A DNA stretch of 64,000 nt from Acidimicrobiales bacterium (GCA_020628865.1 JAHDEJ010000001.1:234395-298394), one strand, 5' to 3'; shown: positions 3,980 to 47,855, counted from the stretch's first letter. The notes: a model not told the origin generated them from the sequence alone. A program made the numbers and translations.

Positions 3980-3981
3980 CC

Positions 3982-4113: not shown

Positions 4114-4998
4114 TTAGAGGGTGGCGACGATTTCGGCCATGAGGTCGCCGGCTTCGGTCGGGTTCAGACCGACCTTCACGCCCGCGTCCTCGAGGGCTTC
4201 CATCTTCGCGGCCGCCGTGCCCTTGCCACCCGAGACGATGGCACCGGCGTGGCCCATCTTCTTGCCGGGAGGGGCGGTGACGCCGGCGACGTAGCTGACG
4301 ACCGGCTTGGTCACGTTGGCCTTGATGTACTCGGCTGCCTCTTCCTCGGCCGAACCACCGATCTCGCCGATCATCATGATCGCCTTGGTCTCGGGGTCGG
4401 CTTCGAATGCTTCGAGGCAGTCGATGAAGTTGGTGCCGGGAACCGGGTCTCCGCCGATGCCCACCGAGGTGGTCACGCCGATGTCCTTCTGCTGCAGTTC
4501 GTACACGGCCTGGTAGGTCAGCGTGCCCGAACGGCTCACGACGCCCACCGGACCGCCGGGCTTGGCGATGTGTCCGGCCGTGATGCCGATGTTGGCCTTG
4601 CCGGGGCTGATGATGCCGGGGCAGTTCGGGCCGAGAAGACGCGTGCCGGGGAAGTCGGCCTTCAGCTTGTTGTAGAACCAGGCCTCGTCGTGGGCAGGCA
4701 CGCCCTCGGTGATGACGACGACCAGCTCCATGCCGGCTTCCGCTGCCTCCATCACGGCGCCCTTCACGGCGACCGGCGGCACGAAGACGCAGGATGCGGT
4801 GCATCCGGTGGCGTCACGGGCTTCGGCGACCGAAGCGAAGATCGGCATGCCGTCCACGTCGGTACCGGCCTTCTTCGGGTGGGTTCCGCCCACGACCTTC
4901 GTGCCGTATTCGCGGTTCAGGTTGCCGTAGTAACGGCCGGTCGAGCCGGTGAGGCCCTGGTAGACGACCTTGGTGTTCTCATCGAGAAAGATGCTCAT
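4114..4998 (-). CDS. sucD: Succinyl-CoA synthetase subunit alpha
   Basis: [24 protein letters not shown]..., [11 protein letters not shown] and the [13 protein letters not shown] phosphohistidine-loop region. The gene lies immediately downstream of sucC. Confidence 0.95.
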
Positions 4999-5027
4999 TG
5001 TTCGTTCCTTCGTTCCGTAGTCGTCGT

Positions 5028-13241: not shown

Positions 13242-13352
13242 CGAGGACCTCCAGGCGGGAGTGGCGGAACCGGGGTCTTCGACGCGCGTGGCAAAATTCT
13301 TGAGTCACCCGGCCCAGTCGGATGGGCCGGACGGTTCAGATCGGTGTGCCGC

Positions 13353-14747
13353 CTACCGGCTGGCGCGGATCCAGGTGAGTTCGCCGTCCACGTTGGCGAG
13401 CAGCACGGCGGCGTCGCCACCGGCCACGAGCAGCTGCACCCGGTCTGGGGCGGCGACGTCGATCGGGGTCGACGCCCAGCTGTCGCCATCGCTCAGGGTG
13501 AGCGTGTTCGTGCCCAACGCCGAGTTGCCGAGAAAGCTGACCGTGCCGGCACCGGTGGACACCGAGCCGATGGTTCCGGCTTCGAGTTCGCTGCGCTGCC
13601 ACGACTGTCCGCCGTCGGCCGACATCGCCGTCCAGGTCGTTTCGCCATCATCGCCGGCGAGAAGGATGGAGCCGTCGAGCACCGAGAAGCTTGCGACCGA
13701 ATCGTTCTCGAACCCACTCATAAGCGACGACGTCCAGCCGGTGCCGTCGGTCGAGTCGAACAGCGTCGGACCCTCCGGCGTGGTGCCGACGGCGACGAAA
13801 CCGGCATCGATTGCGACCACGCCCGCGAGCGTTCCGGCGCCAACCGGGTCGCCCAGCTCGTACGGGCCACCAACCGGGCCGACCCAGACACGGGGCTCCG
13901 GGGCGACGCCGACGACGAGCACGCCGGCCGGACCGACGGCGAGGTCGGTGGCGATGGCGTCCTGCCCCGGCAGTGCCGGTGCCAACGACCAGTTCTCCAG
14001 GTCGGTCGACACGCCGACGAAGGTGTTGTTGCGTTGTGCGTCCACGTCGAACTGGGAGAACAGTGCGACGAACGTCCCTGCGTGGGATCGAAGTGCTGTT
14101 GCGGTGGCGCCAGCGGGAACGCCCTCGAGGTCCACTTCGGTCCAATTCAACCCGTCCGTCGAGGACAGGCCGATGGCCGAGACCCCGGCGGCGCCGCCGA
14201 AGCGGCTGGCCAGACCCACGAAGCCGTCATCGGACGAGACGAGCAGTACGCCGGAGCCGCCGGCGAAGTCGACGGCGGATGCCTGCGTTTCGACCGAGAT
14301 GCCGCCCGCATCGGCCTGCAGCGGCGCATTCTCGATCGTCTCTTCGACCGGTGCCGACACCAGTGGGGCATCGTCGGCGGCCTCGTCGACCGCTACCTGG
14401 GCGTCCTCGGCGGGGACCGCGGCCGGCTCGACTGCGGCGGCAGCGTCCTCGGCAGGTGCGGCGGCCGGGTCGGCCGTTTGCTCCGATGTCTCGTCGGCGG
14501 CCTCGTCGGGCGCGGCGACGACCACGTCGCTCGTGTCCCCGTCGGGCAGGGCGGCGATCAACCCGCCACCGGCAATGGCGACCACGCCCACCACCGCGGC
14601 CGCAGTGCCGGCGATCTTGTTGCGACGCCGCCGGCCGGACACCACCGCGGCGAGCTCATCCACGCCAGGGCGCTCAACGACGGACCCCGGCGCAGCATGT
14701 TGCAGCCCGGAGCGCAGTCGGTTCTCGAGGTTCGGTTCGTTAGTCAT
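13353..14747 (-). CDS. Single-pass membrane protein with Asp-box (BNR) beta-propeller ectodomain; putative anti-sigma/sensor partner of the upstream ECF sigma
   Basis: ATG at 14747 overlaps the sigma-factor stop (ATGA). Short cytoplasmic N-terminus MTNEPNLENRLR, TM helix AAAVVGVVAIAGGGLIAAL and an acidic linker. Asp-boxes STDGLNW, STDGTGW and SADGGQSW. The longer 576-aa track ORF overlaps the sigma gene out of frame. Confidence 0.6.
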   Translation of the reverse strand: MTNEPNLENRLRSGLQHAAPGSVVERPGVDELAAVVSGRRRRNKIAGTAAAVVGVVAIAGGGLIAALPDGDTSDVVVAAPDEAADETSEQTADPAAAPAEDAAAAVEPAAVPAEDAQVAVDEAADDAPLVSAPVEETIENAPLQADAGGISVETQASAVDFAGGSGVLLVSSDDGFVGLASRFGGAAGVSAIGLSSTDGLNWTEVDLEGVPAGATATALRSHAGTFVALFSQFDVDAQRNNTFVGVSTDLENWSLAPALPGQDAIATDLAVGPAGVLVVGVAPEPRVWVGPVGGPYELGDPVGAGTLAGVVAIDAGFVAVGTTPEGPTLFDSTDGTGWTSSLMSGFENDSVASFSVLDGSILLAGDDGETTWTAMSADGGQSWQRSELEAGTIGSVSTGAGTVSFLGNSALGTNTLTLSDGDSWASTPIDVAAPDRVQLLVAGGDAAVLLANVDGELTWIRASR

Positions 14748-30654: not shown

Positions 30655-31139
30655 TGAGGGCGGGCCACCAGGGCGACGGCCCAACAGGCGATTCCGTCTC
30701 CCCGACCGAGCGCACCGATGCCTTCGGGTCGCTTGCCCTTGATGGTGACCGGGGCTCCGACAGCCTCGGTCAGCCGTTCCTGCATGGCTTCGCGCACGGG
30801 TGCGAGCTTCGGCGCGTCGAGCACTACAGAACAGTCGGCGTTGAGTGGCGTCCATCCGGCGTCACGGACGCCGCGCATCGCCGCCCGCAGAAGCTCGATG
30901 CTGTCGGCACCCTGGAGCGCCGGGTCGGTGTCCGGGAAGTGCGATCCGATGTCGCCGAGCCCGGCGGCGCCGAGGAACGCATCCGTCACGGCATGCGCGA
31001 TCACGTCTGCATCGCTGTGACCGGCGAGGCCGGGTCCGGGGAACGCCACACCGGCCAACATCATCGGACGATCGGGATCCGTGGAGAACGGATGGATGTC
31101 GAATCCCTGGCCCACTCGAATCGCAGGAAAGTCAGGCAT
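30651..31139 (-). CDS. ispF: 2-C-methyl-D-erythritol 2,4-cyclodiphosphate synthase
   Basis: IRVGQGFDIHPF...GHSDADVIAHAVTDAFLGAAGLGDIGSHFPDTDP. Confidence 0.93.
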   Translation of the reverse strand: MPDFPAIRVGQGFDIHPFSTDPDRPMMLAGVAFPGPGLAGHSDADVIAHAVTDAFLGAAGLGDIGSHFPDTDPALQGADSIELLRAAMRGVRDAGWTPLNADCSVVLDAPKLAPVREAMQERLTEAVGAPVTIKGKRPEGIGALGRGDGIACWAVALVARPQ

Positions 31140-31791
31140 GTTCTGCTCCTTCAGCTGCGTCGAGCATGGCGCCGGCCGTGAGCAGATCCACCGGATCCGT
31201 GATCTTTCGGTTGGCCGCCTCGCCCGGAACCACGACGACGGAACCACCGGCACGCTCGACCAGCGTTGCATCATCCGTGGCTTCGGCGGCACCGCGGTGC
31301 GCCGCACGGAGCTGATCGGCGGGAAAACCCTGTGGGGTCTGGACGGCCAGCAGCTCGTCCCGGTCGATCACACCGCCGCTACGCCGCCGGATCGTGTCGG
31401 CCACGGCCACCCCGGGGACGACGGCGTCGGCGCCGGCACGAACCGCGTCGATCACCGATCGGAACAGGGCCGCAGATGCCAACGGACGGGCAGCATCGTG
31501 CACCAGGATGACCCCGCAATCGTCGTCGATGACGGCGAGCCCGGCCCGAACCGACTCGGCCCGACTCGCACCGCCGGCCACGACGTGCACGATGGTGTCG
31601 GAGGGTGCGACGATCTCGGTCGACTCGACCGCATCGGCCGGGACGACCACGACGACACCGGTCGAGCAGGCTCCTGCGGCATCGACAGATCGTTGCAGAA
31701 CAGAGATTCCGCGGAGATCGGCGAATTGTTTGCGCATTCCGAACCGCAGACCCGAGCCACCTGCCACAACGATGGTCCAGACGGAATCCAT
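31132..31791 (-). CDS. ispD: 2-C-methyl-D-erythritol 4-phosphate cytidylyltransferase
   Basis: VVAGGSGLRFG...KQF, and VLVHDAARP. The gene overlaps the ispF start by 8 nt. Alternative start at 31827. Confidence 0.88.
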   Translation of the reverse strand: MDSVWTIVVAGGSGLRFGMRKQFADLRGISVLQRSVDAAGACSTGVVVVVPADAVESTEIVAPSDTIVHVVAGGASRAESVRAGLAVIDDDCGVILVHDAARPLASAALFRSVIDAVRAGADAVVPGVAVADTIRRRSGGVIDRDELLAVQTPQGFPADQLRAAHRGAAEATDDATLVERAGGSVVVVPGEAANRKITDPVDLLTAGAMLDAAEGAEHA

Positions 31792-31848
31792 GCCGATTGC
31801 CGACGAACCTGCAGGATGGTGGCTCATGTCACTATCATCGCCTATGTC

Positions 31849-32508
31849 ATGGTTGATTCCTCACTCCTCTCCTCCGTCGATCTCTTCCGGGACGTCGACC
31901 CCGAATACATCGCCGAACTGAGCGCAGCAGCGACCGAGCGCTCGCTCTGGCGGGGCGATGTCCTCTTTGCCGAGGGGCAGGAGCCGGATGCGCTCTACAT
32001 CGTGACGAGTGGACGAATCGCCATCGCCAACAAGTCGATCGACGGGCGGGAGTCCGTCGTGGCGCTCATGGAAGAGGGCGACCTCTTCGGCGAGATGGGC
32101 CTGTTCGACGGACTCGGTCGCTCTGCCGAAGCCCGTGCGCTCGAACCGTCCAAGGTGGCCGAGATCCCCTACGACCCCGTACGCCGCACCTACGAGGCCC
32201 ACCCGGAACTGCTCTGGCGCGTCGTCGACATGCTCGCGCGGCGTCTCCGTTCCATGGATGAGGCCCTCGCCGACTCCGTCTTCCTCGACGTCACCGGCCG
32301 CACCGCCAAGCGCCTGCTCGAACTCGCCGGCGATGCCGACGAGTTCACCCTGCCGATCACGCAAGAGGAACTGTCCGGCATGGTTGGCGCCTCCCGTGAG
32401 CGAGTCAACAAGGCCATCAGCGCCTTCATCCGACTCGGCTGGCTCAGCCAGACCGACCGCCGCTACACCATCACCAACCGCAAGCAGCTCGAAATCCGTT
32501 CGAGGTAG
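31849..32508 (+). CDS. crp: Crp/Fnr-family cAMP-receptor-type transcriptional regulator
   Basis: cNMP-binding domain (GDLFGEMGLFDG..RSAEARA) and C-terminal HTH (TQEELSGMVGASRERVNKAISAF). Confidence 0.88.
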   Translation: MVDSSLLSSVDLFRDVDPEYIAELSAAATERSLWRGDVLFAEGQEPDALYIVTSGRIAIANKSIDGRESVVALMEEGDLFGEMGLFDGLGRSAEARALEPSKVAEIPYDPVRRTYEAHPELLWRVVDMLARRLRSMDEALADSVFLDVTGRTAKRLLELAGDADEFTLPITQEELSGMVGASRERVNKAISAFIRLGWLSQTDRRYTITNRKQLEIRSR

Positions 32509-32626: not shown

Positions 32627-35158
32627 TCAGTGAGAGATGGCGTCGAGGACGTTGAGCTTTCCTGCCCGCCGGGCCGGGAGGAACCCGGCGAGCAGGCCGG
32701 CGGCCGAGGCCACCAGGACCAGCACGCCGATCGACGTCCACGGAACCGCAAGGTTCGACAGGAACTCGTCCGGAGTGGCCGTGACCACGAGGATGCCGAA
32801 GACGATGCCGACGGCGGCCCCGAGCAGTGCACCGACACCGGAGACGATGGCGGCCTCCCAGCCCACCATGCGATGCATCTGGCTGCGAGTCATGCCGACG
32901 GCCCGCAGGAGTCCGAGCTCCCGAGTCCGTTCGAAGATCGACAGCGCCATCGTGTTCACGATGCCGATGAAGGCGATGAGGATGGCCAGACCGAGGAAGC
33001 CGCTCAGAACCTGGAGGAGGAAATCGACCTGGCCGCTGATGCTCTCGCGGTAGTCGCTGGCCGACTGCGCATCGAGCTGCGGGTAGGCCGACGAGAGGTC
33101 GGCGAAGAAGGCGTCGGCCTGCTCCGTGGTCGAGCCCTCGGCAATTGATGCGGCGACCCAGTCGTAGTTGACCTGTTCACCGATCGTGTCGTAGCGGCTC
33201 TCGGTGACGACGGCGCCCTCGAAGATGTTGCCGTCGCTGAAGATCGCAGCGAGTTCGAGGTCGACGATCGAGCCGTCGGCCAGTTCGACCGGGACGTTGT
33301 CGCCCAGCGACAGCCCCCGCTCGTCCACCAGCGTCTCCCGCAGGGCGAACGAGTTGTCGTCGACGTCCGTCCATGCACCGCCGACCAGACCGAGGTCGAG
33401 GACCTGATCGATCGAACCGAGCTCGAGCGTGCCGATCTCGGTGTCGATCCCGCCGATGGAGGTGCCCCAGTAGCGCATGCCCGCAACGTTCGTGAGATGC
33501 GGACTTGCCTCCATTTCGGACAACACCGCGACCGGAACCTCGCCGGACGGGGACGTGGCGAAGGCGGCGTAGTCCGCCTGAACCGTCGTCTCGAGCAGCT
33601 CGTTGAGGTCGGACTTCAACGTCTGGCCGACGACGAACGCCATCGAGACGAGCGAGAGCCCGATCATCAGCGCCGCCGCAGTCGTGGCGGTACGCCGAGG
33701 GTTGCGAGCGGCGTTCTCCTTCGCCAACACGCCGGGACGCCGGTAAATCTTGGCGATCGGCGCACCGAGTGTGCGGGAGATCGGCGCTGCGACCAGTGGG
33801 CTCAACAACGTGATCCCGATGAACAGCGTGGCGGCGCCGACGCCGAGGAGCCCCAGCATGAGGGCGGTGCTGTCGATCCCGCCGAACAGCGCAACACCGG
33901 TGGCGATCGCGCCGGCCAGCGACAGGACGCCGCCCAGGATGAGCGACCGGGTGTTCTCCCGAGGGTCGACCTGGTCGTGCCCGGAGATGGCGGTGATCGG
34001 TGCGGTGAGTCCGGCCTTGCGGGCGGGAACCCAGGCGGATGCCATCGTCACGCCGACACCGACGCCCATGCCGATCAGCGCGGTGGTGAGCGAAATCGGC
34101 TTGTCGAAGTCGGGGAGCTCGGCGCCGACGGCGGCAAGCATCGCTTCCATGCCGTAGGCGAGGCCGAGGCCGACGAGGATGCCGACAGCGGACGCCAGCA
34201 GACCGACGACGAACGCTTCACCGAGCACCGCCCGACGAACCTGCTTCGGTGTCGCACCGACCGCCCGGAGCAGCCCGAGCTCGCGAACCCGCTGGCTCAT
34301 GACGATGTTGAACGTGTTGGCAATGATGAAGATCGAGACGAACAGTGCCACGATCGCAAACGACCGCAGGACCCAGGCGAAGATGTCGATGAACGAGTTG
34401 AACTCTGCCCGCTGTTCTGCGTTCAGATCCGCCGTGTCGAGGGCCGCATACTCGGTTCCGAATTCGCGCTCGATGTCGGTGCGGACGTCGGCCACGGCTC
34501 GGGTTCCGTCGGTGGCGATCACGATGTTGTCGTAGACGCCGGGTTCGCCGAACAGATCCTGGGCGGCATCGATGTGCATCGCCATGAGGGTCGCGCCGTT
34601 GGTCGTGTTGTCGGCGCCGAACCGCAACGTGCCGACCAACTCGGCTTCGGTGATGCCTTCTTCCGTCGGCACGACCAGCTGGTAGGTGTCACCGACGACG
34701 AAGCCGTGTTCTTCGGCCGCCGTCATGTCGATGATCCATTCGCCGGGCGCTTCCGGCGCGCGGCCGGTTTCGATCGAGCTCGGGTTCAGCTGCGGATCGT
34801 CGATCCAGCTGAACATGAACTGGGGTGGCCCCTCGATCGAGATGGTTTCGCCGTCGGGCTTGATGGGCAGCACCGAGCTTTCCCACGCTTCGACGACCGG
34901 CTCGGCGATGCGAACGCCGTCGATGGCGTTGATGCGGTCGAGGTCGGCGGCGACGAGGTCGACGTCGTTGACGGCCGGGCGAACCTCAAGGTCCGTGCCT
35001 TGCACGATCTCGGCGCTGAGATCGCCGAAGCTGTCGCGCAGGCCTTCACTCAGGATGTTCGCGGCGCTGATGAAGCCGACTCCGAGCACGATGGCCAGAG
35101 CGGTGAGGGCGAGGCGGACCTTGTTGGCCGCAACGTTCTTGATGGTGATGTTCCACAT
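32627..35158 (-). CDS. ABC transporter permease, MacB/FtsX type with two FtsX domains
   Basis: N-terminus MWNITIKNVAANKVRLALTALAIVLGVGF and two RELGLLRAVG(A/M)T FtsX signature segments. Start at ATG 35158. Confidence 0.85.
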   Translation of the reverse strand: MWNITIKNVAANKVRLALTALAIVLGVGFISAANILSEGLRDSFGDLSAEIVQGTDLEVRPAVNDVDLVAADLDRINAIDGVRIAEPVVEAWESSVLPIKPDGETISIEGPPQFMFSWIDDPQLNPSSIETGRAPEAPGEWIIDMTAAEEHGFVVGDTYQLVVPTEEGITEAELVGTLRFGADNTTNGATLMAMHIDAAQDLFGEPGVYDNIVIATDGTRAVADVRTDIEREFGTEYAALDTADLNAEQRAEFNSFIDIFAWVLRSFAIVALFVSIFIIANTFNIVMSQRVRELGLLRAVGATPKQVRRAVLGEAFVVGLLASAVGILVGLGLAYGMEAMLAAVGAELPDFDKPISLTTALIGMGVGVGVTMASAWVPARKAGLTAPITAISGHDQVDPRENTRSLILGGVLSLAGAIATGVALFGGIDSTALMLGLLGVGAATLFIGITLLSPLVAAPISRTLGAPIAKIYRRPGVLAKENAARNPRRTATTAAALMIGLSLVSMAFVVGQTLKSDLNELLETTVQADYAAFATSPSGEVPVAVLSEMEASPHLTNVAGMRYWGTSIGGIDTEIGTLELGSIDQVLDLGLVGGAWTDVDDNSFALRETLVDERGLSLGDNVPVELADGSIVDLELAAIFSDGNIFEGAVVTESRYDTIGEQVNYDWVAASIAEGSTTEQADAFFADLSSAYPQLDAQSASDYRESISGQVDFLLQVLSGFLGLAILIAFIGIVNTMALSIFERTRELGLLRAVGMTRSQMHRMVGWEAAIVSGVGALLGAAVGIVFGILVVTATPDEFLSNLAVPWTSIGVLVLVASAAGLLAGFLPARRAGKLNVLDAISH

Positions 35159-35186
35159 GATGGGTCTCCCGTTCCCGTTCGTCTGC

Positions 35187-35942
35187 TCAGCGCTGCGTGG
35201 CGCGGCGGAGCGTGCTGAGGATGGTGTCGGTGTCCGGATCGTGGAGCTCGTCCAGGATCCGGCCGTCGGCCAGAAACAGGACCCGGTCGGCGTAGGCCGC
35301 AGCAACCGGATCGTGGGTGACCATGACGATGGTCTGGTCGTATTCGTTCACCGCACGACGCATGAACGAGAGGATCTCGGCGCCGGTGGTGGAGTCGAGG
35401 TTGCCGGTCGGTTCGTCGGCGAAGACGACCTCGGGCCGTGAAGCGAGTGCTCGAGCCACAGCGACGCGCTGCTGCTGGCCGCCCGAGAGCTCGTTCGGCT
35501 TGTGTTCGAGCCGATCGGCGAGTCCGACCGCCCGGATGACCTCGTCGAGCCAGGCTTCGTCGACGCCGAGTCGACCAAGGTCGAGGGGCAACGTGATGTT
35601 CTCGATCGTGGTGAGGGTGGGCACCAGGTTGAAGGCCTGGAAGACGAACCCGATCTTGGTGCGCCTCAGGAGCGTCAGCTCCTTTTCGTTCATCGTCGAT
35701 AGGTCGGTGTCGCCGATGACGACTCGACCCGACGTGAGCCGGTCGAGCCCGGCGAGGCTGTGCATGAGGGTGGACTTGCCCGAGCCCGACGGGCCCATGA
35801 TTGCCGTGAATTGGCCCTTGGTGAACGTGACGTCCACCTGATCGAGTGCCGTGACCTGCGTGTCACCGGATCCGTAGACCTTCGTTGCACCCTCGGTGCG
35901 AGCCGCCAATTCGGTGAGTACTGGTGTGTCGATGACTGCCAT
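35187..35942 (-). CDS. ABC transporter ATP-binding protein (MacB/LolD-like)
   Basis: Walker A GPSGSGKST, signature LSGGQQQRVAVARAL, Walker B VVFADEPTGNLD. Confidence 0.92.
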   Translation of the reverse strand: MAVIDTPVLTELAARTEGATKVYGSGDTQVTALDQVDVTFTKGQFTAIMGPSGSGKSTLMHSLAGLDRLTSGRVVIGDTDLSTMNEKELTLLRRTKIGFVFQAFNLVPTLTTIENITLPLDLGRLGVDEAWLDEVIRAVGLADRLEHKPNELSGGQQQRVAVARALASRPEVVFADEPTGNLDSTTGAEILSFMRRAVNEYDQTIVMVTHDPVAAAYADRVLFLADGRILDELHDPDTDTILSTLRRATQR

Positions 35943-36106
35943 CGTTCTTCTCCCGTGGTCCACGCCCGCCCCGTGCGAACGTGTCCTTTCACAGTGCAGA
36001 ACGAAGAACGATTCGTCGTCAGCCCCCGGGACGTTTGCCGGGGTCCTCCCCAGGGTGGAGGGCCCTCATCCCAACGTCAGGGTTCTCCCTGAGACGGGTT
36101 GAGGGG

Positions 36107-38586: not shown

Positions 38587-39813
38587 TCAGAGCGTGTCGT
38601 GTTCCATCTCGTCGTCGAACTCCTCGCAGAGCTCGTCGAGGAAGGCATCGAGTTCGGCGTCGGTGAATTCGACCGAATCGAAGTCCATCTCGTCGTCGAG
38701 CTCGTACCAGTCGGCATCCTCCGGATCGAACTCGTCGAGGTACGCATCCTCGTCGTCGAAGTCGTCGAAGTCTTCAGCCTCGAGTTCGGCGTCGAGCTCC
38801 GCCCAGTCGGCGTCCGTCCAGTCGGTGGTGTCGATCTCGACCCACTCGCCGTCGATGAACTCCTCGACGATGAAGTCATCGTCGTCAGCGAACTCGCCGT
38901 CGAACATGGCATCGTCCTCGAAATCGAAGTCGGCGGTGTCGCCATCGAAGTCGGGGGCGTCCTCGGTGTCGGCGGGATCGGTCGGTGCCGGAACGTTCGG
39001 GCTGGCCGTGGCCTCGCCGGTGTTCAGGAAGTCGATGTAGTTCGGCACCTCGGCGTAGACACCGGGGGTGTCACCACCGCACTCGTCGCCCCAGCTCACC
39101 ACGCCGGCGAGCTTCGGGCCGTCGGCCGTCTGCACGACGAGCGGGCCACCGCTGTCGCCGTAGCAGGAGTCGGTGCCCGTGCCGCCGGCGCAGACCTCGC
39201 CCGCGGCGTCGGTCCCGAGCTGGGCGTTGCAGGTCGCATCGTCGACGAGTGGAACGGTTGCGGAGAGCAGCTGGTTGGGCGAATCGGTGTCGGTTTCGCC
39301 GACGGCGCCCCAACCGGAGGTCACCGCGGTGTCGGCGGCCGCAATCTCGGCCCGGCTGGCCGGGGCGATCGGCTGCACCCGCTCGTTGAACGTGAGCGGT
39401 TCGGCCAGCTTGATCACGGCGATGTCGCCGACGCCGGTCGCCGCGTAGTCCGGGTGCGACGTGATGGAGGCGACTCGCACGTCCTGGCCACTCGAGTCGC
39501 TGGAGTCGGTGACCCCGGCCCGAACGGTCGTGCCGGCGGCGGTCTCACCTTCGACACAGTGGGCGGCGGTGACGATGGTGGTGGCGTCGAGGATCGAGCC
39601 TCCGCAGTAGTAGCCGGAACCGTCCTGCAGCGAGACCTGCCAGGGGGCGTCGGTTGCGCTGGCCGGAGTGCCGTTGACGATGGCGCCGGCGGAGCCGCCG
39701 CCGAGCAGCAGCGTGGCGCCCATGATCGAGGCGCCGAGACTTCCGGCGAGCACGCCGGCCAGAAGGCGGCGCTTCGGTGCGGGAGCGGGGGTTGGGTTGG
39801 GGGTGGTGTCCAT
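38587..39813 (-). CDS. Secreted trypsin-like S1 serine protease with hyper-acidic C-terminal tail
   Basis: IVNGTPA..., TAAHC (His), DSCYGDSGGPLV (Ser) and an N-terminal signal/TM region. The last ~127 aa are about half Asp/Glu. Confidence 0.85.
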   Translation of the reverse strand: MDTTPNPTPAPAPKRRLLAGVLAGSLGASIMGATLLLGGGSAGAIVNGTPASATDAPWQVSLQDGSGYYCGGSILDATTIVTAAHCVEGETAAGTTVRAGVTDSSDSSGQDVRVASITSHPDYAATGVGDIAVIKLAEPLTFNERVQPIAPASRAEIAAADTAVTSGWGAVGETDTDSPNQLLSATVPLVDDATCNAQLGTDAAGEVCAGGTGTDSCYGDSGGPLVVQTADGPKLAGVVSWGDECGGDTPGVYAEVPNYIDFLNTGEATASPNVPAPTDPADTEDAPDFDGDTADFDFEDDAMFDGEFADDDDFIVEEFIDGEWVEIDTTDWTDADWAELDAELEAEDFDDFDDEDAYLDEFDPEDADWYELDDEMDFDSVEFTDAELDAFLDELCEEFDDEMEHDTL

Positions 39814-40003: not shown

Positions 40004-42649
40004 ATGAATGCGGGTGCCGAGCAACAAGGAGGGACCGTGCCGTCCGGCACCGTGACCTTCTTCTTCTCCGACATCCAGGGCTCGACGAGACTGTGGGCGG
40101 CCGACGAAGCCGGCATGTCCGCCTCGACACAGCTCCATGAGCAGATCATTCGAGGAATCCTGGAACCTCGCGGCGGCTACGTCTTCAACACGGCGGGCGA
40201 CTCGTTTGCGGTGGCGTTCGAAAGCGCCGAACTTGCCGTCGACGCAGCCAAGACCATTCAGGACGCGCTGGCCTCGACGGAATGGCCGGGACCGTCGATC
40301 CGGGTTCGCATCGGCTTGCATCGGGGCCTGGCCGAGGTACGCGACGGCGACTACTTCGGCATCAACGTGAACACCGCCGCCCGCATCGAAGATGCCGGCC
40401 ACGGCGGACAGACCCTGGCCAGCCAAGCGGTCGTGCAGGCCGCAGGCATCGACGCCCAGGACATGGGCATCTACCAACTCCGGGACCTGGCCGAACCCGT
40501 CCACCTGTTCCAGCTCGGCGATGGCGACTTCCCGCCGCTGCGTGTCGCCGACCCCGAGCTTCACAACCTTCCGGCCCGGCCGACCTCGATCATCGGCCGG
40601 GACGTGGAAGTCGCGCATCTCCGCGGTCTGTTGTTGGAGGAACGGCTGGTCACGATGACCGCCCTCGGAGGCTGCGGCAAGACCCGACTCGCCGTGGCCG
40701 TGGGCGAAGCGGAACTCCGCCACCAACCCGATGGCGTCTGGTTCGTCGACTTCACCGCCATCGTCGACGGGGCCAACGTCCCGGCTGCGCTCGCCGAAGC
40801 CGCCGGCCTCAGCCTGGGCGGAGGCGACCCGACCGAGCAGGTCATCACCTACTTCGCCGGCAAGGAGTCGCTCCTCATCCTCGACAACTGCGAACACATC
40901 ATCGACGACGTCGCGGATTTCGTCGATGCCTGGCTGCAGGTCCCCGGACGATCGAGAATCCTCGCCACGAGCCGCGAACCACTCGACCTGGACGGCGAGC
41001 GGGTCATGATGCTCGAGTCGCTCCCGTTCGAGGGATCCGACTCCCCCGCCGTGCGCCTGTTCGCCGAGCGGGCCACGGCCATCCAACCGACCTTCATGGT
41101 GACCGACGCAAATCGAGCGGATGTCGAGGCGATCTGTCGGCATCTCGATGGGATTCCGCTGGCCGTCGAGTTGGCGGCGGTTCGCATGACGGCGATGACA
41201 CCCGCCGAGGTGCTGGCCGGGCTCGACGACCGCTTCACGCTCCTCGGTGGTGGGCGACGCCGCCGCCGAATGCGCACGCTGCGCGCCACACTCGATTGGA
41301 GCTACGACAACCTCGTCGAGGACGACCAACGGGTCTTTCGTTGTCTGGGCGCCTTCGTCGATGGTTTCGACCTGCCGGCCGTCGAGGCCGTCACCGCCCT
41401 TCCGGCCTTCCAGGCCCGCGACGCCCTCGACTCGCTCCAAAGCAAGTCCATGATCGTGCGGGCGCACGCAGGAGCGCACGCACGATTTCGCATGCTCGAG
41501 ACCGTCAAGGCCTACGCCGATGAACGACAGCAGGAGGAAGGTGGCGCAGCCGGCGACCGTGGGCGACACCTGACGCACTTTCATGAGCGGGCGACCCGAC
41601 ATGGCCGGGTCTGTCAGGGCCTGCTGAGTACCGGCAACGACCTTCGGCGGGACACCAGCAACCTGTCGACCGCATTCGACTGGGCCATGGACCAGGGCGA
41701 GCATGCCGCCGCCGGCGAGCTGTTGCTCGGCACCTCGATGGCGTTTTTCATGAGTACGCGTGTGCTGGAGTTCCGAACGATGCTCCTCGAGGCGGAGAAG
41801 CACGTCGGCCGCGACGACCCGGAACTCCACGACTACCTGACCGTCCAGCTGGTCTTCGGTTCGGGCAAGCTTCGTGACCTCGCGGGGGTCGAGCATCACG
41901 CCAACCTCCTGCTGGAGTCGGAGGATCCGGGGTTCCGGGCGGTCGGTCATGCGACACTCGCCAGCCTCGCCGTCCGCCGGTCGCCCGGCATGGGGGCGGC
42001 GCCAGACCTCTTCTCCCCCGCGTGGGACGAGCTCGACCATGGCGGCGGCGACCGCGACGGCAACATCGCAGAATTCGCGCCGGCCTACGTCGCAACGGCC
42101 GAACTGACGAGAAGCCTCATCGCCCTCGATCTGGCCGCGGCACTCGAGCGGGCGGACGAGGTGCTCTCTGCAGCCGTGGACCACGGGTCCCGAAGTTTCC
42201 TCCACGTCGGCGTTGCGAACTCGCAGGCGATGGCGCTCCTGCTGAGCGATCGACCGGCCGATGCCCTCGCTGCACTCGATTGGCTCGTCGACCACGACCT
42301 TCCCTACTACGACGGTGTCGAGGCACGAACCCTGATCCGTTTGGAACAAGGCGACATCGAGGCGGCCACGCCGGACCTTCGAGTGCAGTGCCAACGCGGG
42401 CTCAGCGGCCGCTTCGAAGGCGAGTGTTGCGACAGCGTGTTGCTGCTCGCCACGCTTGCGCACGCCGAAGGTGACGACGACCGGGCCCGAGCGTTACTGA
42501 CCTCGATGGGGCAGGGCCGACTGCCGGCCACGGTGGCATTCGCACGTCACCTCGGTGCACGGCTGGACGTCGCCCCGGCCCCAACAACCTCGGTCGACGA
42601 TGCCCTCGCCACGCTCCGTACCGAGATGAACCGCCGGGGCTGGTCATAG
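40004..42649 (+). CDS. Class III adenylate/guanylate cyclase domain fused to STAND (NB-ARC/AAA) ATPase and TPR-like C-terminal region; no HTH recognised
   Basis: Cyclase region VTFFFSDIQGSTRLW...FNTAGDSFAVAF...RIGLHRG...GINVNTAARIE. P-loop GGCGKTRLA, Walker B LLILDNCEH, then ~450 aa of helical repeat-like sequence. Confidence 0.8.
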   Translation: MNAGAEQQGGTVPSGTVTFFFSDIQGSTRLWAADEAGMSASTQLHEQIIRGILEPRGGYVFNTAGDSFAVAFESAELAVDAAKTIQDALASTEWPGPSIRVRIGLHRGLAEVRDGDYFGINVNTAARIEDAGHGGQTLASQAVVQAAGIDAQDMGIYQLRDLAEPVHLFQLGDGDFPPLRVADPELHNLPARPTSIIGRDVEVAHLRGLLLEERLVTMTALGGCGKTRLAVAVGEAELRHQPDGVWFVDFTAIVDGANVPAALAEAAGLSLGGGDPTEQVITYFAGKESLLILDNCEHIIDDVADFVDAWLQVPGRSRILATSREPLDLDGERVMMLESLPFEGSDSPAVRLFAERATAIQPTFMVTDANRADVEAICRHLDGIPLAVELAAVRMTAMTPAEVLAGLDDRFTLLGGGRRRRRMRTLRATLDWSYDNLVEDDQRVFRCLGAFVDGFDLPAVEAVTALPAFQARDALDSLQSKSMIVRAHAGAHARFRMLETVKAYADERQQEEGGAAGDRGRHLTHFHERATRHGRVCQGLLSTGNDLRRDTSNLSTAFDWAMDQGEHAAAGELLLGTSMAFFMSTRVLEFRTMLLEAEKHVGRDDPELHDYLTVQLVFGSGKLRDLAGVEHHANLLLESEDPGFRAVGHATLASLAVRRSPGMGAAPDLFSPAWDELDHGGGDRDGNIAEFAPAYVATAELTRSLIALDLAAALERADEVLSAAVDHGSRSFLHVGVANSQAMALLLSDRPADALAALDWLVDHDLPYYDGVEARTLIRLEQGDIEAATPDLRVQCQRGLSGRFEGECCDSVLLLATLAHAEGDDDRARALLTSMGQGRLPATVAFARHLGARLDVAPAPTTSVDDALATLRTEMNRRGWS

Positions 42650-42668
42650 CCCACGTACGCAGCCGAGG

Positions 42669-42698
42669 TTGCTGGCACGATCGCACAGAATCTAGTGT
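42669..42698 (+). promoter_or_regulatory. Candidate sigma-70-type promoter for the precursor-YcaO-TfuA operon
   Basis: TTGCTG (42669-42674), an 18-nt spacer, then TAGTGT (42693-42698, TAnnnT), in a locally GC-poorer stretch ~80 nt upstream of the ATG. Pattern match only. Confidence 0.2.
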
Positions 42699-42778
42699 CA
42701 CGGCCGCGGCTGGCCGATGGTGGGCCGCCCGAGGCGCCCGACCCGTGGGGCCCGGCCCAAAGGTGGAGGTTCCAGGAC

Positions 42779-43024
42779 ATGCAAGAACAGTTTCGGTCGC
42801 TCGTCGACGCACTCGTGGGCGATGAGAAATTCCGCGAGGCCTTCATGAACGCTCCCGACCAGGAGACACGGATGTCCCTCGCCGCCGACAAGGGTCTCTC
42901 GATCCCGTCGTACGACGACATGTCTGCTGCCACCGAGGCCCTCGGCGATGACGGCGTGGTGCCCGACAACCTGATGAGCGCCGGCTTCTGGATGAGCGCC
43001 TTCTGGATGCCGAGCGAAGAGTAG
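42779..43024 (+). CDS. 81-aa putative RiPP precursor with Nif11-like leader and Cys-free core (..NLMSAGFWMSAFWMPSEE)
   Basis: RBS AGGTGGAGG lies 9 nt upstream of ATG 42779. MQEQFRSLVDALVGDEKFREAFMNAPDQETRMSLAADKGLSIPSYDDM follows the Nif11 N-terminal domain pattern. The gene lies 91 nt upstream of YcaO on the same strand. Confidence 0.6.
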   Translation: MQEQFRSLVDALVGDEKFREAFMNAPDQETRMSLAADKGLSIPSYDDMSAATEALGDDGVVPDNLMSAGFWMSAFWMPSEE

Positions 43025-43115
43025 GCCGCTGTTTCATCGGTCGTTCGGTTCGCCGAGCCCCACACCGGACCATCGTTCCGCCGGCCAGCCGCCGCGCGCT
43101 CACAGCGCCGAGGAG

Positions 43116-44228
43116 ATGTGGGATCGCATCGAACCCCATCTGGCTGACTTCGGCATCACCCGGGTCGCCCACCTGACGCACCTCGACCGCATCGGCATTC
43201 CCGTGCACATGGCGATGCGTCCGGCGGGCCGCGTGCTCTCGAGCGGAAGCGGCAAGGGCACGACCGAATTGGCCTCGCGTGTGAGCGCCTGCATGGAGGC
43301 GATCGAGCAGGTGTACTGGGAATCGGCGCGCCCGGCGGTGCGGTTGGAGACGCCGGAGGCCCTCACCCGCACTGGCGAGGCGTTCGTCGACCCTTCCGAG
43401 CTTCCGGTTCGACGGAACGCCATCGGCCACGAAGCCACTCCGTCGGCCTGGCTTCCGCTCCACGATCTGGTGACCGGTGACGCCGTGTGGGCACCGGCCG
43501 AGACCACCTGCGTCGCCACGGGCGATGGCCGCACCCGAGCGCATCGAAACATGTCCTCGTCCAACGGCCTGGCCAGCGGCTCCCGGGTGATCGACGCCGC
43601 CTTGTCGGGGGTCTACGAGGTGGTCGAGCGGGACGCGATCGCGCTCGCCGCAACGCTGGCGAGGCCGATGCAACCGCCGGCGGGCGATGTGGTCGATTCG
43701 CTTCTCGACCGGCTGCGGGCAGCAGACGTCGGGATCGAACTCGACGACCTCACGACCGACATCGGGCTGCCCACGGTGCGGGCGGTCATCGACGGTGGCG
43801 AGGTCGGCACGAACTTCGTGGGCTACGGCACCTCGTCCGATGGGGAGCACGCGGCCGTTCGGGCGATCACCGAGGCGGCGCAGAGTCGGTGCATCGTCAT
43901 CGCCGGCGCCCGAGACGACATCTTCGACCTGGAACGCCGGGCATCGAACCGGCTCGGCTCCACCCAGGCCCTTCGCTCGGACTCGCCCGGTCACCAACTC
44001 GCCGTCGGAGGCTCCACCGGCTCGACCGCCGGCGACCTCGACGAGGCGATCCGCCGGCTCCAGGCTGCGGGTCTCGATCGGATACTCATCCACCGGTACA
44101 CGACCGATGAGGACCCGGTGCAGGTCGTCCGGGTGGTCGTCCCCGGGCTCGAGGGCTATCCGGGCCCGCACACCGCTCCGGGCCGCCGGGCGCTTGCGCA
44201 CCGACATCGGGAGCCGCTCGATGTCTGA
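43116..44228 (+). CDS. YcaO-family ATP-dependent amide-activating enzyme (TfuA-associated type)
   Basis: GITRVAHLTHLDRIGIPV, SGSGKGTTELASRVSACMEAIE, SNGLASGSRVIDAALSGVYEVVERDA, TDIGLPTV, ITEAAQSRCIVIAGARDD, and VVPGLEGY. Confidence 0.88.
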   Translation: MWDRIEPHLADFGITRVAHLTHLDRIGIPVHMAMRPAGRVLSSGSGKGTTELASRVSACMEAIEQVYWESARPAVRLETPEALTRTGEAFVDPSELPVRRNAIGHEATPSAWLPLHDLVTGDAVWAPAETTCVATGDGRTRAHRNMSSSNGLASGSRVIDAALSGVYEVVERDAIALAATLARPMQPPAGDVVDSLLDRLRAADVGIELDDLTTDIGLPTVRAVIDGGEVGTNFVGYGTSSDGEHAAVRAITEAAQSRCIVIAGARDDIFDLERRASNRLGSTQALRSDSPGHQLAVGGSTGSTAGDLDEAIRRLQAAGLDRILIHRYTTDEDPVQVVRVVVPGLEGYPGPHTAPGRRALAHRHREPLDV

Positions 44229-45657
44229 TGCACCCGTGCGCGGCATCGTCTTTGTCGGCCCCTCGCTCCCGGTCGAGACGATTCGAGAGATGGATCCCTC
44301 GCTCCTGGTGCTTCCGCCGGCGGCGATGGGCGACCTCCTGTCCGCCGTTCGGCATCACCAGCCGAACGCGGTGGCCCTGATCGACGGGACGTTCAAGCAG
44401 AACCTGTCCGTGTTCCACAAGGAGATCCTCTGGGCGATGGCGGAGGGGGTCTGGGTTCTCGGAGCCAGCAGCATGGGGGCGTTGCGTGCGGCCGAACTTC
44501 ATGACCTCGGCATGATCGGCGTCGGCCGGATCTTCGAGGAGTACGCGAGCGGCTGTCTGGTCGACGACGACGAGGTGGCGCTGGCCCACGCCGATGCCGA
44601 GTTCGGGCATCAGGCGGTCAGCACGCCGATGGTGAACATTCGGGCCACGCTCGACCACGCAGTCGAACAGGCCATCCTCTCGCAGGCGCAAGCCGACGCA
44701 CTCGTGGGTGCGCAGAAACAGCGCCACTTCCCCACTCGGAATCTCCGCACCCTCCTCGACGACGCAGCCGCGTTGGACCTCGGCCTCGACGAGGCCAGCA
44801 GCTCGGCGCTGCAAACGCTCATCGACGGTGGCGGCATCGATCTGAAACGGCAGGACGCAATCGCTGCAGTCGAGCAGTTGAGCATCCGCGCCGTGTCCCC
44901 CATGCCTCCCGACCGTCGCCCCGCCCATCCGGTGGCGGCAACGTTCCAGGGCACGTTGGAACGTGACGTGACCGTCGGGCTCGACGCCGACCTGCCGGTG
45001 ACGTTCGATTCGATCCGCAGACACAGCGCATTGAACGACACCCACTTCGAGCGCACATGGCGCACCGCGGTCACGACCTCCACACTCCACCGGCTAGCCG
45101 AAGTGCTCGGGGTCGTCCCCTCCGAGCAGGACCACGAACACGCCCGCACGGCGGTGCTCGCCCGCCTGACCGCACCCGACAACGGCGACTCGGCTGCGAC
45201 GCTTCGCCGACTCGACATGAGCGACCGAGACCTCGAGCGCATCGTCGGCGACGAAGCCATCGCACTGCGATTCCAACGCTGGCTGGCCGCCCAGGCGGGC
45301 TACACCCGAACCACCCAGGCGTTCATCGATCAGCTGCGACTCGACGGTCGCTACGAGGAGGCCCGGACCGAGGCCGGACTGTTCGAACAGGCGGCATCCG
45401 ATGCCGAGGGCGCAACCACCCAACCCAGCCTGGACCGGGCCATTGCCCTCCACTCGGCGCTCACCGGTTGGGAACCGCCGAGCGACCTCGATCGATACAT
45501 CGAGGATCACCAGCTCGGCAGTCGAGCCGAGCTCTACGACCGGCTGATGGTCAGCCTGCTGGCCGTGCAGAAACTGACCGGGCTTCCCGTGCCCATGGTC
45601 AGCGAATCCCCGTCGGTGGAAAGCGGGCCGATCGCCACTCGGGGCCATCAGGGCTGA
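44221..45657 (+). CDS. TfuA-domain protein with ~270-aa C-terminal extension
   Basis: VFVGPSL, LPPAAMGDLL, LIDGTFKQNLSVFHKEILWAM, VLGASSMGALRAAEL, GMIGVGRIF, DDDEVALAH, and VNIRATL. ATG 44221 overlaps the YcaO stop by 8 nt. Confidence 0.85.
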   Translation: MSDAPVRGIVFVGPSLPVETIREMDPSLLVLPPAAMGDLLSAVRHHQPNAVALIDGTFKQNLSVFHKEILWAMAEGVWVLGASSMGALRAAELHDLGMIGVGRIFEEYASGCLVDDDEVALAHADAEFGHQAVSTPMVNIRATLDHAVEQAILSQAQADALVGAQKQRHFPTRNLRTLLDDAAALDLGLDEASSSALQTLIDGGGIDLKRQDAIAAVEQLSIRAVSPMPPDRRPAHPVAATFQGTLERDVTVGLDADLPVTFDSIRRHSALNDTHFERTWRTAVTTSTLHRLAEVLGVVPSEQDHEHARTAVLARLTAPDNGDSAATLRRLDMSDRDLERIVGDEAIALRFQRWLAAQAGYTRTTQAFIDQLRLDGRYEEARTEAGLFEQAASDAEGATTQPSLDRAIALHSALTGWEPPSDLDRYIEDHQLGSRAELYDRLMVSLLAVQKLTGLPVPMVSESPSVESGPIATRGHQG

Positions 45658-45672
45658 CGCCTGGCAGGCCGG

Positions 45673-47058
45673 TCAAGCGGCCGGCAGGTCGAGCACGAAC
45701 CGGGCGCCGCCCCGTTCGTTGGCATCGACCGTGAGTGTGCCGCCATGTGTCTGGGCCACCTCGCGAGCGAGGGCGAGGCCGAGACCAGAGCCGCCAGCGT
45801 CACGCGTCCGGGCCTCGTCGAGCCGGACGAATCGCTCGAAGACCCGCTCGCGGTCTTCGGGGGCGACCCCGGCGCCATCGTCGTCGACCACCACGATCGC
45901 GCGCCCGCGCTGTTCGGCAACGGTGACGACGACCATGGACGAGGCGTGGCGCACGGCATTCGCCAGCAGGTTCGTGATCACCCGGCGGAGATGGTCGGGG
46001 TTGCCCCGGACGGACGCCGCGGACACGTAGCTGGTCCCGATGGCGACGCCGTCGGGTCGGGCCAGGGTGGCCGCCTCGGTGAGGACCAGATCGTCGAGGT
46101 CGACGAGGCGTTGGGCCGACGGATCGGGCCGGGCGCCGTCGTCCGAGCGGGCCAGCAGCATGAGGTCCTCCACCATTCGCTGCATGCGGTCGACTTCGTT
46201 GCGGAGGTGCGCGGCGCTTCGGTTCCAGTCCGCCGTCTCCGGATGAGCGAGATCGACTTCGAGATTGGCCTTCATGGACGCCAGCGGGCTCCGCAGTTCG
46301 TGGGCCGCGTCGCCCGCGAAACGGCGTTGCCGTTCCTGCGCAGACTCGAGGCGCTCCAGCATCCCGTTCATCGTCTTGGCGAGACGGGAGATCTCATCGG
46401 GTCGACTCCCGACCTCCACCCGACGAGCGAGGTCGGTTCCACTGATCGTCTCCACCTCGGCCCGGATGCCCTCGACCGGGCGCAGGGCACGTCCGGTCAG
46501 TTCGTAGACGAGCAGCGACACGAGCAGCGTGAGGATCGGCACGACGACCAGCGCACCCGTTCGGACCTGGCCGACGGTTCGGTCGACCCCGTCGAGCGTG
46601 CGGGCCGCAACCACGATTTCGCTCCCGGCTTCGACCTCGGTGAACACCACCCGCAGATTGTCGACCCCTTCGGTGAGCGTGACGGACGGCAGCGCCCCGT
46701 CTCCCGGCTCGTCCCAGGCGATGTCGCCGGGAAACCCGTCTTCACCCAGCAGGGCAAGAACCTCATTCACGTCGGGCACATCGTCGTTGTGGATCTCGAG
46801 CAGCGGCTCCTCGCCCGGGTACCGCTCGATGATGCCGAGGAAGACCTCCGGGTCGTTCGGAAAGCCGGCGTTGTCGAGTTCATTCGTGAAGTCGATCTCA
46901 ACCGCAGCATCGATGGCACGATTGGCGATCTGCGAATCCACCTCGTCCACCAGACTGCGACGAAGCACGACGAGCAGCACGATGGCGGCGGCGGTCAGGG
47001 TGAGCGCAGTGGCCACGAACGCAATGAACGTGACCCGACGGCGAACGGTGGCCAGCAT
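45673..47058 (-). CDS. Sensor histidine kinase (TM-HAMP-HisKA-HATPase_c)
   Basis: H-box AHELRSPLASM, N-box NLLANAVRH, G-boxes DDDGAGV and GGSGLGLALA, and two TM segments. Confidence 0.88.
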   Translation of the reverse strand: MLATVRRRVTFIAFVATALTLTAAAIVLLVVLRRSLVDEVDSQIANRAIDAAVEIDFTNELDNAGFPNDPEVFLGIIERYPGEEPLLEIHNDDVPDVNEVLALLGEDGFPGDIAWDEPGDGALPSVTLTEGVDNLRVVFTEVEAGSEIVVAARTLDGVDRTVGQVRTGALVVVPILTLLVSLLVYELTGRALRPVEGIRAEVETISGTDLARRVEVGSRPDEISRLAKTMNGMLERLESAQERQRRFAGDAAHELRSPLASMKANLEVDLAHPETADWNRSAAHLRNEVDRMQRMVEDLMLLARSDDGARPDPSAQRLVDLDDLVLTEAATLARPDGVAIGTSYVSAASVRGNPDHLRRVITNLLANAVRHASSMVVVTVAEQRGRAIVVVDDDGAGVAPEDRERVFERFVRLDEARTRDAGGSGLGLALAREVAQTHGGTLTVDANERGGARFVLDLPAA

Positions 47059-47741
47059 CAGCGCTGATCGTCGATGAGCCGATAGCCGACTCCGCGCACC
47101 GTCTGCAGCGTCGACCGGTCGAAGGCGACGTCGATCGCGTTGCGGATGCGGGAGACGTAGACCTCGACGATGTTCGGATCACCCTCGAAGGCGTGGTCCC
47201 ACACGTTCTCCAGGATCTGCTCTTTCGACATCACGAGGCCCTGCTGGCGCATCAGATACTCGAGCACGGCGAAGGCCTTCGGCGAGAGCTCGATCTCTGT
47301 CTCCCCGCGGAAGACCCGACGTGCGTGAGCATCGAGCATCAGGTCGCCGACACGCAACTGATCCGTGGGCGTCGCCGTTGCTCCGGCCCGACGGATCAAC
47401 GCCCGGAGCCGGGAGAGCAGCACCGGGTAGCTGAACGGTTTCGTGACGTAGTCGTCGGCGCCGGTGTCAAGACCTTCCATCTCGTCGTACTCGCCGTCCT
47501 TCGCGGTGAGCATCAGGATCGGCACGCTGTTGCCGTCCTCCCGGAGGGCCGAACAGATGCGGTAGCCGTTCAGACCCGGGAGCATGATGTCCAGAATGAT
47601 GGCGACGTAGGGGTTCGTGCGGGCGAGGTGGAGCCCATCGACGCCATCGTGAGCCACGTCGACGGCGAATCCGTCGGCGGTCAGCCCGCGCTGCAACGCT
47701 TCGGCGATACCCGCCTCATCCTCGACGACCAGAATCCGCAT
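47058..47741 (-). CDS. OmpR/PhoB-family response regulator
   Basis: MRILVVEDE, DVAILDIMLPGLNG-type receiver domain, and winged-helix C-terminus VYVSRIRNAI...TVRGVGYRL. Its stop overlaps the kinase ATG by 1 nt. Confidence 0.9.
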   Translation of the reverse strand: MRILVVEDEAGIAEALQRGLTADGFAVDVAHDGVDGLHLARTNPYVAIILDIMLPGLNGYRICSALREDGNSVPILMLTAKDGEYDEMEGLDTGADDYVTKPFSYPVLLSRLRALIRRAGATATPTDQLRVGDLMLDAHARRVFRGETEIELSPKAFAVLEYLMRQQGLVMSKEQILENVWDHAFEGDPNIVEVYVSRIRNAIDVAFDRSTLQTVRGVGYRLIDDQR

Positions 47742-47855
47742 GGATGCAGTATGCCCGTCGGTCCTGAACGGAAGCTGAATGCCCGGACGGGTCGGGGTGG
47801 GGCCCGCCGCACCCCACCCCTGTCGGAGCGGTTCCGCCAACCGCCCGGAAGCGCG

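Follow-up and report, generated by a model that had tools for sequence, protein, structure and literature searches.

The DNA analyzed here is a 64,000-nt stretch of one strand from an uncultured Acidimicrobiales bacterium (GCA_020628865.1 JAHDEJ010000001.1:234395-298394), referred to below as the window. It carries a four-gene cassette encoding a cyclase-STAND protein, a precursor peptide, a YcaO protein, and a TfuA protein, and these four genes are the conserved unit. We consider it likely (probability about 0.7) that the cassette makes a small ribosomal peptide with a thioamidated backbone. The system is a variant, and it leaves the known chemistry unchanged.

Cassette architecture and precursor peptide

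The cassette is encoded on the plus strand. An earlier note on this DNA had described three co-directional genes, namely an 81-aa open reading frame (ORF) with a good ribosome-binding site, a 370-aa YcaO after a 91-nt gap, and a TfuA gene with an 8-nt overlap, and these coordinates were confirmed. The precursor ORF runs from ATG to stop at 42779..43024, and a Shine-Dalgarno-like AAGGTGGAGG (42760..42769, +; read from the sequence) lies 9 nt 5' of the ATG. The 91-nt spacer between the precursor stop and the start of YcaO (43116..44228, +) has no unusual structure (z = 0.78). The ATG of the 478-aa TfuA is at 44221, and the YcaO gene closes with a stop codon whose last nucleotide is 44228, which gives the 8-nt overlap. 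A description of the locus as three genes is too narrow, since the upstream gene for the 881-aa cyclase-STAND protein (40004..42649, +), which ends 129 nt before the precursor gene starts, is conserved as a fourth. Among the related loci (numbered with L), the gene order of the cassette is kept in L001, L095, L092, L015, and L016. The 881-aa gene itself is retained also in L001, L095, and L092, and its C-terminus is retained in L092. No Rfam families were found in the window, and no promoter or terminator consensus was found within 42300-46000.

The small ORF is a genuine gene on which purifying selection acts. Its conservation across homologous YcaO-TfuA loci, a check that the earlier note had suggested, places the ORF in L001 (a near-identical contig, ~95% nucleotide identity) and L092 (80% nucleotide identity over the ORF), and the leader family in many phyla. 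The window and L001 precursors differ by five synonymous and no non-synonymous changes. Comparison with L092 gives an omega of 0.24, and all amino acid changes (16/16) fall within residues 1-65. The last 16 codons show synonymous differences only, including AGC to TCG at Ser67.

Residues 1-58 of the precursor (42779..42952, +) make up a divergent Nif11-like leader, as indicated by PF07862 and TIGR03798 matches (both below cut-off), an independent family hidden Markov model (HMM), and alignment. A Nif11-type leader had been proposed earlier, and the family membership stands, although the curated models are not reached. The precursor matches PF07862 with an E-value of 8.9e-4 (19.9 bits against a cut-off of 23.8) and TIGR03798 with 1.2e-4 (22.2 bits against 32.3). 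In the Pfam comparison of all three proteins, YcaO and TfuA matched strongly and Nif11 was sub-threshold. The family leader HMM was built from 51 leader segments with the window clade excluded, and among all ORFs of the window it matches a single frame, 42695..43024 (E = 2e-7). All nine aligned family members match TIGR03798, and eight of the nine match PF07862. Judged from sequence, the leader is a divergent branch of the Nif11-like family, and the assignment is sound because the family HMM matches only the precursor frame in the window.

The leader is followed by a linker (residues 59-69, GVVPDNLMSAG; 42953..42985, +), recognized by alignment to relatives, which holds two candidate cleavage sites, GDDG↓V and MSAG↓F. 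Cleavage would fall probably at or near MSAG↓FW, a choice of site that draws on alignment with relative P0259, which reads ...EFAGG↓FYQWL at the corresponding place. The probable core is residues 70-81 (FWMSAFWMPSEE), encoded with the stop codon at 42986..43024 (+), and is supported by a tandem duplication and by conservation. In this duplication, SAGFWM (42977-42994) is followed by SAFWM (42995-43009), and a 9-nt repeat, TTCTGGATG, underlies the two copies at 42986 and 43001. The C-terminal segment of the peptide, SAGFWM-SAFWM-PSEE, is therefore short, aromatic, and internally duplicated. The core has three Ser residues, and the entire precursor contains no Cys, in agreement with the Cys-free core of the earlier note.

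The precursor is encoded beside peptide-modifying enzymes, and across its relatives the leader is conserved and the C-terminus is variable. A word-indexed database search returned orthologs only, an exhaustive phmmer search with the precursor added two distant peptides, and a scan of JGI metagenomes with the precursor alignment found nothing. The nearest non-orthologous precursor is P0259 (45% identity), which comes from the same sample as a TfuA, P0004, that is 52% identical; the P0259 gene is preceded by a gene encoding at least 506 aa. Precursors of the window sub-type have short aromatic ends (FWMSAFWMPSEE, FYQWL, and ...TDTLWG), and most have no clear GG.

YcaO and TfuA enzymes

The YcaO protein is of the ATP-dependent type that activates backbone amides, and by Pfam match, motifs, and PDB matches it belongs with the TfuA-associated (thioamide) enzymes. 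The Pfam YcaO model is covered over its whole length (E = 1.3e-58). The hallmark motifs reported earlier are present as SACMEAIEQ (residue 57) and EVVERDA (residue 168), and they align with the ATP/Mg-binding Glu motifs of MJ1094. The best PDB matches are the archaeal thioamidating MJ1094 (6.9e-21) and the M. kandleri YcaO, which supports the proposed thioamide-type YcaO/TfuA unit. The window YcaO is 43% identical to YcaOs from loci with clear Nif11/GG precursors, and its omega is 0.16. Its N-terminus is 40-50 aa shorter than in actinobacterial relatives, and the short start (MW.RIEP) is kept in L092.

Translational coupling of TfuA to YcaO is a marker of thioamide-forming pairs (PMC8120280; PMC6511847), and TfuA is a ThiS-thiocarboxylate hydrolase according to literature cited in PMC13063428. 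In the window protein, the N-terminal catalytic domain (residues 1-222; 44221..44886, +) is identified by the Pfam TfuA model, which covers residues 55-173 only (E = 2.4e-45), and by M. acetivorans TfuA (PDB 6xp8), with a profile match of 4.5e-55 and a Foldseek match of E = 1.9e-15 and a TM score of 0.89. The omega of the TfuA gene is 0.17. In the species-representative genome set, no TfuA is closer than 41% identity.

The remainder of TfuA (44887..45657, +) encodes a C-terminal domain of ~250 aa (residues ~223-455) and a disordered tail, delimited by conservation and AlphaFold2 (AF2) prediction. The domain is all-helical and confidently predicted (AF2 pLDDT 88), and it is conserved over its full length in 38 of 38 aligned homologs. 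Pfam has no match to it, and fold searches gave no significant match; the only recurring weak matches are SurA/PrsA-type chaperone domains (E 0.3-8; profile E 0.011), which serve as a lead only. In the genome scan, a length of 440-470 aa is found for most bacterial TfuAs, so the extension is general, and the idea that a long TfuA is specific to Nif11 systems was rejected on this ground. Only TfuAs with window-like C-terminal domains (at or above ~69 bits on a C-domain HMM) accompany detectable Nif11-like ORFs, an association that is confounded by relatedness. It is a reasonable guess that the domain binds the leader or the substrate, because no RiPP recognition element (RRE; RiPP, a peptide made by ribosomes and then modified post-translationally) is present. 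A near-invariant motif, ..(E)P..(S/T)RG, closes the disordered tail; its Arg and Gly are R474 and G475 of the window TfuA.

Upstream cyclase, related loci and known systems

The 881-aa protein combines a class III nucleotide cyclase, a STAND/AAA NTPase, and a helical C-terminal region. It matches Pfam Guanylate_cyc at 8.4e-11 and PDB adenylate cyclases at 8.6e-19, and its gene has an omega of 0.08 against L001. In L015 (an Acidimicrobiales metagenome-assembled genome, MAG) and L016 (an Actinomycetota MAG), homologs of 917 and 924 aa are encoded immediately upstream of the precursor in the same orientation; over ~560-590 residues they are 38-39% identical to the window protein (E 1e-92 and 1e-97). 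These homologs have NB-ARC/nSTAND, WHD, and weak TPR matches; in the window protein, Pfam gave no significant TPR match. A literature search found no paper that connects cyclase proteins with TfuA or YcaO loci.

In 14 alphaproteobacterial loci, class III cyclase-TPR or cyclase-AAA_16 genes also lie within 8 kb of YcaO/TfuA pairs, a raw count from synteny that is only partly annotated. Twelve of these have cyclases of ~590 aa (L034, L038, L043, L047, L049, L055, L058, L067, L077, L078, L081, and L084, the last at 12473-14242), and two have cyclases of ~1070 aa (L030, 3551-6751; L079, 3524-6775). In the three mapped in detail (L084, L038, and L055), the cyclase-TPR gene is ~3 kb downstream of TfuA, and a 450-550-aa protein followed by a 151-177-aa protein is encoded between them. 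In L084 the larger of these has no Pfam match and the smaller is a GNAT acetyltransferase. Blast coordinates indicate a similar TfuA-cyclase distance in several other alphaproteobacterial loci.

The window TfuA is a member of a large set of proteins, 470-480 aa long, from environmental Actinomycetota, and the long-TfuA relatives have one to three Nif11-like precursors directly upstream of YcaO. Many loci share a common plan (L002-L009, L011-L014, L090-L091, and L097-L121): one to three ORFs of 75-95 aa, YcaO, long TfuA, a ~266-aa uncharacterized protein, a sulfotransferase, a ~277-aa uncharacterized protein, and exporter genes, which encode a C39-peptidase ABC exporter (PCAT) and a second ABC protein, often with an M20 peptidase. 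Their precursors have the shared leader and GG, AG, or SG sites (ADVSGAG↓, MAGVDGG↓, DMAGGSG↓, and EVAGG↓), and the cores that follow are variable, Thr/Ser-rich, and Ala-rich. These loci hold the closest homologs of the window YcaO (43%) and TfuA (37-52%, C-terminal domain included), and they have the leader family and the order precursor-YcaO-TfuA in common with the window; they differ from it in carrying the sulfotransferase, the two uncharacterized proteins, the exporter, and often the M20 peptidase, and in having no cyclase-STAND gene. Where there is enough flanking DNA, the loci without PCAT, sulfotransferase, and the two uncharacterized genes are those of the window clade, L013, L015, and L016; TfuA identity among the window clade, L015, and L016 is ~37%. 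The same leader with a classical ELEAVAGG ending occurs upstream of YcaO/long-TfuA in Gemmatimonadales, Nitrospirota, Nostoc, Parachlamydiales, and Verrucomicrobiae. No paper on Nif11/YcaO/long-TfuA/sulfotransferase/PCAT clusters was found in the literature.

Several proteins of the common-plan clusters are named Candidatus Nanopelagicales (for example, L005, 1167-9034). A second core type, ...VAGG↓STYFNATACG(G/A)A, is near-identical in the diverged loci L010 (1224-1451) and L091 (1335-1559). In L022 (Azospirillum cavernae NZ_QYUL01000001.1), ORFs of 420 and 458 aa (2771-4033 and 4386-5762) upstream of YcaO/long-TfuA each open with a Nif11-like N-terminus and continue with dozens of repeats in tandem (GQPASSAAAF/GQPASSAAWF), and they may be multi-core precursors.

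The earlier note knew of no described product that unites a Nif11-type leader, a Cys-free core, and YcaO/TfuA as the only tailoring enzymes; the literature does not support calling the combination undescribed, as it has been catalogued and, in one instance, tested. Nif11-like precursors in TfuA-related clusters were catalogued by Malit et al. (2021; PMC8120280). Ayikpoe et al. (2022; PMC9576775) refactored the Tha-1 cluster of Desulforegula conservatrix and expressed it in E. coli; one thioamide was detected by MALDI and high-resolution MS/MS after LahT150 cleavage and was not localized. Precursor, YcaO, and TfuA alone were reported to yield thiovarsolin B (Santos-Aberturas et al., 2019; PMC6511847). 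The two Tha-1 precursors end in ...VAGG↓ASATWVTVGVTSVGAAATCGW and read ...DTVAGG↓ASATWVTVGV... around the cleavage site (PMC9576775). They score 35-41 bits on our family leader HMM, and this profile evidence places them with the window peptide in one leader family.

Tha-1 resembles the window cassette in this leader, in adjacent YcaO and TfuA genes, and in a Trp a few residues after the cleavage site. In contrast to the window, the Tha-1 cluster is deltaproteobacterial and includes a glycosyltransferase, a radical S-adenosylmethionine (rSAM) methyltransferase, ThiS, and ThiF, and its precursors have a canonical ...VAGG site cleavable by LahT150 and a Gly/Ala/Val-rich core ending in CGW. The window precursor has no GG and an aromatic/Met-rich acidic core, and the cassette has no extra enzymes and a cyclase-STAND neighbor. 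The thiovarsolin system is similar in the sufficiency of a minimal gene set, its small product, and a repeated core unit in the precursor; it differs in an unrelated precursor family without a Nif11 leader, another core, and additional var genes.

The defining traits of thioamitides are an AviMeCys macrocycle and a set of several additional tailoring enzymes, and Cys is required. Thioviridamide and thiostreptamide S4 have YcaO/TfuA-dependent backbone thioamides and are actinobacterial RiPPs like the predicted product, whereas the window precursor has no Cys and no further tailoring genes are adjacent. The McrA thioglycine system (MJ1094/6PE3 and TfuA 6XP8) provides the closest solved structures for both enzymes, and the same chemistry is expected; however, its substrate is a folded protein, its archaeal TfuA is ~217 aa with no C-terminal domain, and the equivalog cut-offs of this system are not reached by the window pair.

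Three features appear to be undescribed: the loss from this sub-clade of the PCAT, the sulfotransferase, and the two uncharacterized genes; the short aromatic duplicated core SAGFWM-SAFWM-PSEE; and homologous class III cyclase-STAND genes ahead of the cassette in three divergent actinobacterial lineages.

Neighbors of the cassette include an OpuAC-type binding protein and RadA, which shares 76-77% identity with proteins named from Acidimicrobiales MAGs. A secreted trypsin-like S1 protease (38587..39813, -) is encoded two genes upstream, divergent from the cyclase-STAND gene. The close ortholog L001 retains it, but it is absent beside L015 and L016, and it was rejected as a conserved leader peptidase for this absence. 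The earlier statement that no protease, PCAT, dehydrogenase, or E1-like partner is adjacent is essentially right. A histidine kinase/response regulator pair (45673..47840, -) lies downstream, and it was rejected as part of the system because its homologs are not conserved in L015 and L016. In tblastn searches of the 64 kb, the sulfotransferase and the two uncharacterized proteins of related loci had no homolog. Two PCAT queries matched only a generic ABC ATPase (35385-35933), through query residues 480-675 at ~30% identity, and no C39 peptidase domain was found. MacB-type ABC pairs are often used for peptide efflux, and one (32627..35963, -; an 891-aa FtsX/MacB_PCD permease and an ATPase) is 7-10 kb upstream. 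A 475-aa protein with cyclic-nucleotide-binding and Crp-type helix-turn-helix domains (31081..32508, +) is encoded 8 kb upstream of the cyclase-STAND gene and may be unrelated.

Proposed pathway, alternatives and significance

From the analysis we infer the chemistry on the window peptide, where it is modified and cleaved, and what the regulator does as follows. The Nif11-like leader of the 81-aa precursor would recruit the enzymes. YcaO would O-phosphorylate at least one backbone amide of the C-terminal segment in an ATP-dependent reaction, and TfuA would supply sulfide by hydrolyzing a ThiS-type thiocarboxylate encoded elsewhere. The expected outcome is one or more thioamides, each adding 15.98 Da. 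The leader would then be removed, probably at or near MSAG↓FW, by an unlinked protease; the protease is placed outside the cassette because the sub-clade lost the C39-peptidase exporter that most relatives keep. The upstream cyclase-STAND protein may control the system or respond to it. The earlier note's reservation about the maturation route is justified, because the window has no PCAT.

Several points weigh against a thioamidated peptide as the product. The product is a prediction, and the only tested relative, Tha-1, has an unlike core (ASATWVTVGV...) and a thioamide that was not localized. The precursor falls below the curated cut-offs of both PF07862 and TIGR03798, and it has no GG cleavage site. 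No ThiS-, ThiF-, or CysO-like ORF was found in the window, and the gene for such a protein may lie in another part of the genome. Neither a protease nor an exporter is conserved alongside the cassette.

With the chemistry unchanged, the peptide could have a different role, acting on the adjacent cyclase-STAND protein as its ligand or signal. It would bind the C-terminal helical/TPR-like sensor, switch the N-terminal cyclase, and alter cAMP or cGMP, and the locus would not be an antibiotic cluster. In the window clade, L015, and L016, three divergent lineages, a homologous cyclase-STAND gene lies directly upstream in the same orientation, which points in this direction. So do the correspondence between cyclase-STAND-linked loci and those without a PCAT exporter, the short aromatic cores of the sub-clade (FWMSAFWMPSEE, and FYQWL in P0259), the cyclase-TPR genes that recur near YcaO-TfuA pairs in the 14 alphaproteobacterial loci, and the cyclic nucleotide-binding Crp-type regulator at 31081..32508. 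However, the argument is one of adjacency; large cyclase-STAND proteins are common in Actinomycetota, and this one may do no more than control the cluster's transcription. The lineages number only three and are related, the window's own 881-aa protein has no significant TPR match, and the substrate-specifying Lys of the cyclase appears, on a reading of its sequence, to be replaced. We regard this role as unlikely, though not negligible. A bolder form would be a self-contained peptide-to-cyclic-nucleotide unit in which the ligand is sensed intracellularly or after re-import, linked with a TfuA C-terminal domain that acts as a leader-binding module in place of the RRE. We consider this form about as unlikely. 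If true, it would parallel the RRNPP-type peptide receptors, with a RiPP ligand and a cyclic nucleotide output.

The remaining alternatives concern the product itself. YcaO enzymes with protein substrates exist (PMC13063428), and the pair could thioamidate a folded cellular protein, as for McrA in methanogens or uL16 in Pseudomonadota, with the small ORF unrelated. The best NCBIfam matches are indeed the McrA-glycine thioamidation equivalogs, but the scores are far below the cut-offs (TIGR03266, 187.5 bits against 365; NF033432, 190.9 against 235.2), and the host is bacterial with no mcrA in view. YcaOs of the uL16 type are never found near a TfuA, and they are very acidic, with an isoelectric point (pI) of ~4.4 (PMC13063428). 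The window YcaO has a pI of 5.46 and a TfuA partner, in disagreement with a stand-alone uL16-type enzyme, and it scores 16.6 bits against a cut-off of 700 on NF040716, the model for stand-alone YcaOs of the uL16/S12 type. The precursor gene beside the enzymes across phyla, with its constant leader and changing C-termini, also argues against a protein substrate, which is very improbable. Slightly less remote, yet still quite improbable, is another YcaO chemistry on the peptide, such as a Ser oxazoline, an amidine macrocycle, or ATP-dependent cleavage, with no thioamidation. The core does contain three Ser residues, YcaO chemistry is diverse, and the thiazole/oxazole-modified microcin model TIGR03604 matches at 1.7e-29; its score of 102.9 bits is nevertheless far under the cut-off of 219.25, the peptide has no Cys, and the cassette neighbors include no dehydrogenase and no E1-like/Ocin-ThiF partner of the kind used for azolines. 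A translationally coupled TfuA marks thioamide-forming pairs instead.

It could also be asked whether the cassette is a decaying, productless remnant of a larger PCAT/sulfotransferase cluster, considering that most close relatives carry the PCAT, the sulfotransferase, and the two uncharacterized genes that are missing here, and that the YcaO N-terminus is 40-50 aa shorter than in its relatives. However, none of the four genes is disrupted, purifying selection acts on each of them (omega 0.08-0.24), the short YcaO start is shared with L092, and the same reduced architecture is maintained in the distant L015 and L016. We give decay very little weight, and production of a small backbone-thioamidated peptide remains the preferred reading.

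To our knowledge, few products of YcaO/TfuA pairs have been reported, each of them from a large cluster or from Streptomyces. The window cassette, which has a single precursor and two enzymes, is near minimal. Because it is about as small as such systems get, it would be easy to express and would offer a clean substrate for work on how a thioamide-forming YcaO selects its sites. The conserved, unannotated C-terminal domain of most bacterial TfuAs was not found described in the literature. The common-plan clusters of relatives would, if they produce a sulfated and thioamidated peptide, represent a new combination. Finally, the recurrent link between YcaO/TfuA pairs and class III cyclase-STAND/TPR proteins hints at a role in signaling and not as an antibiotic.

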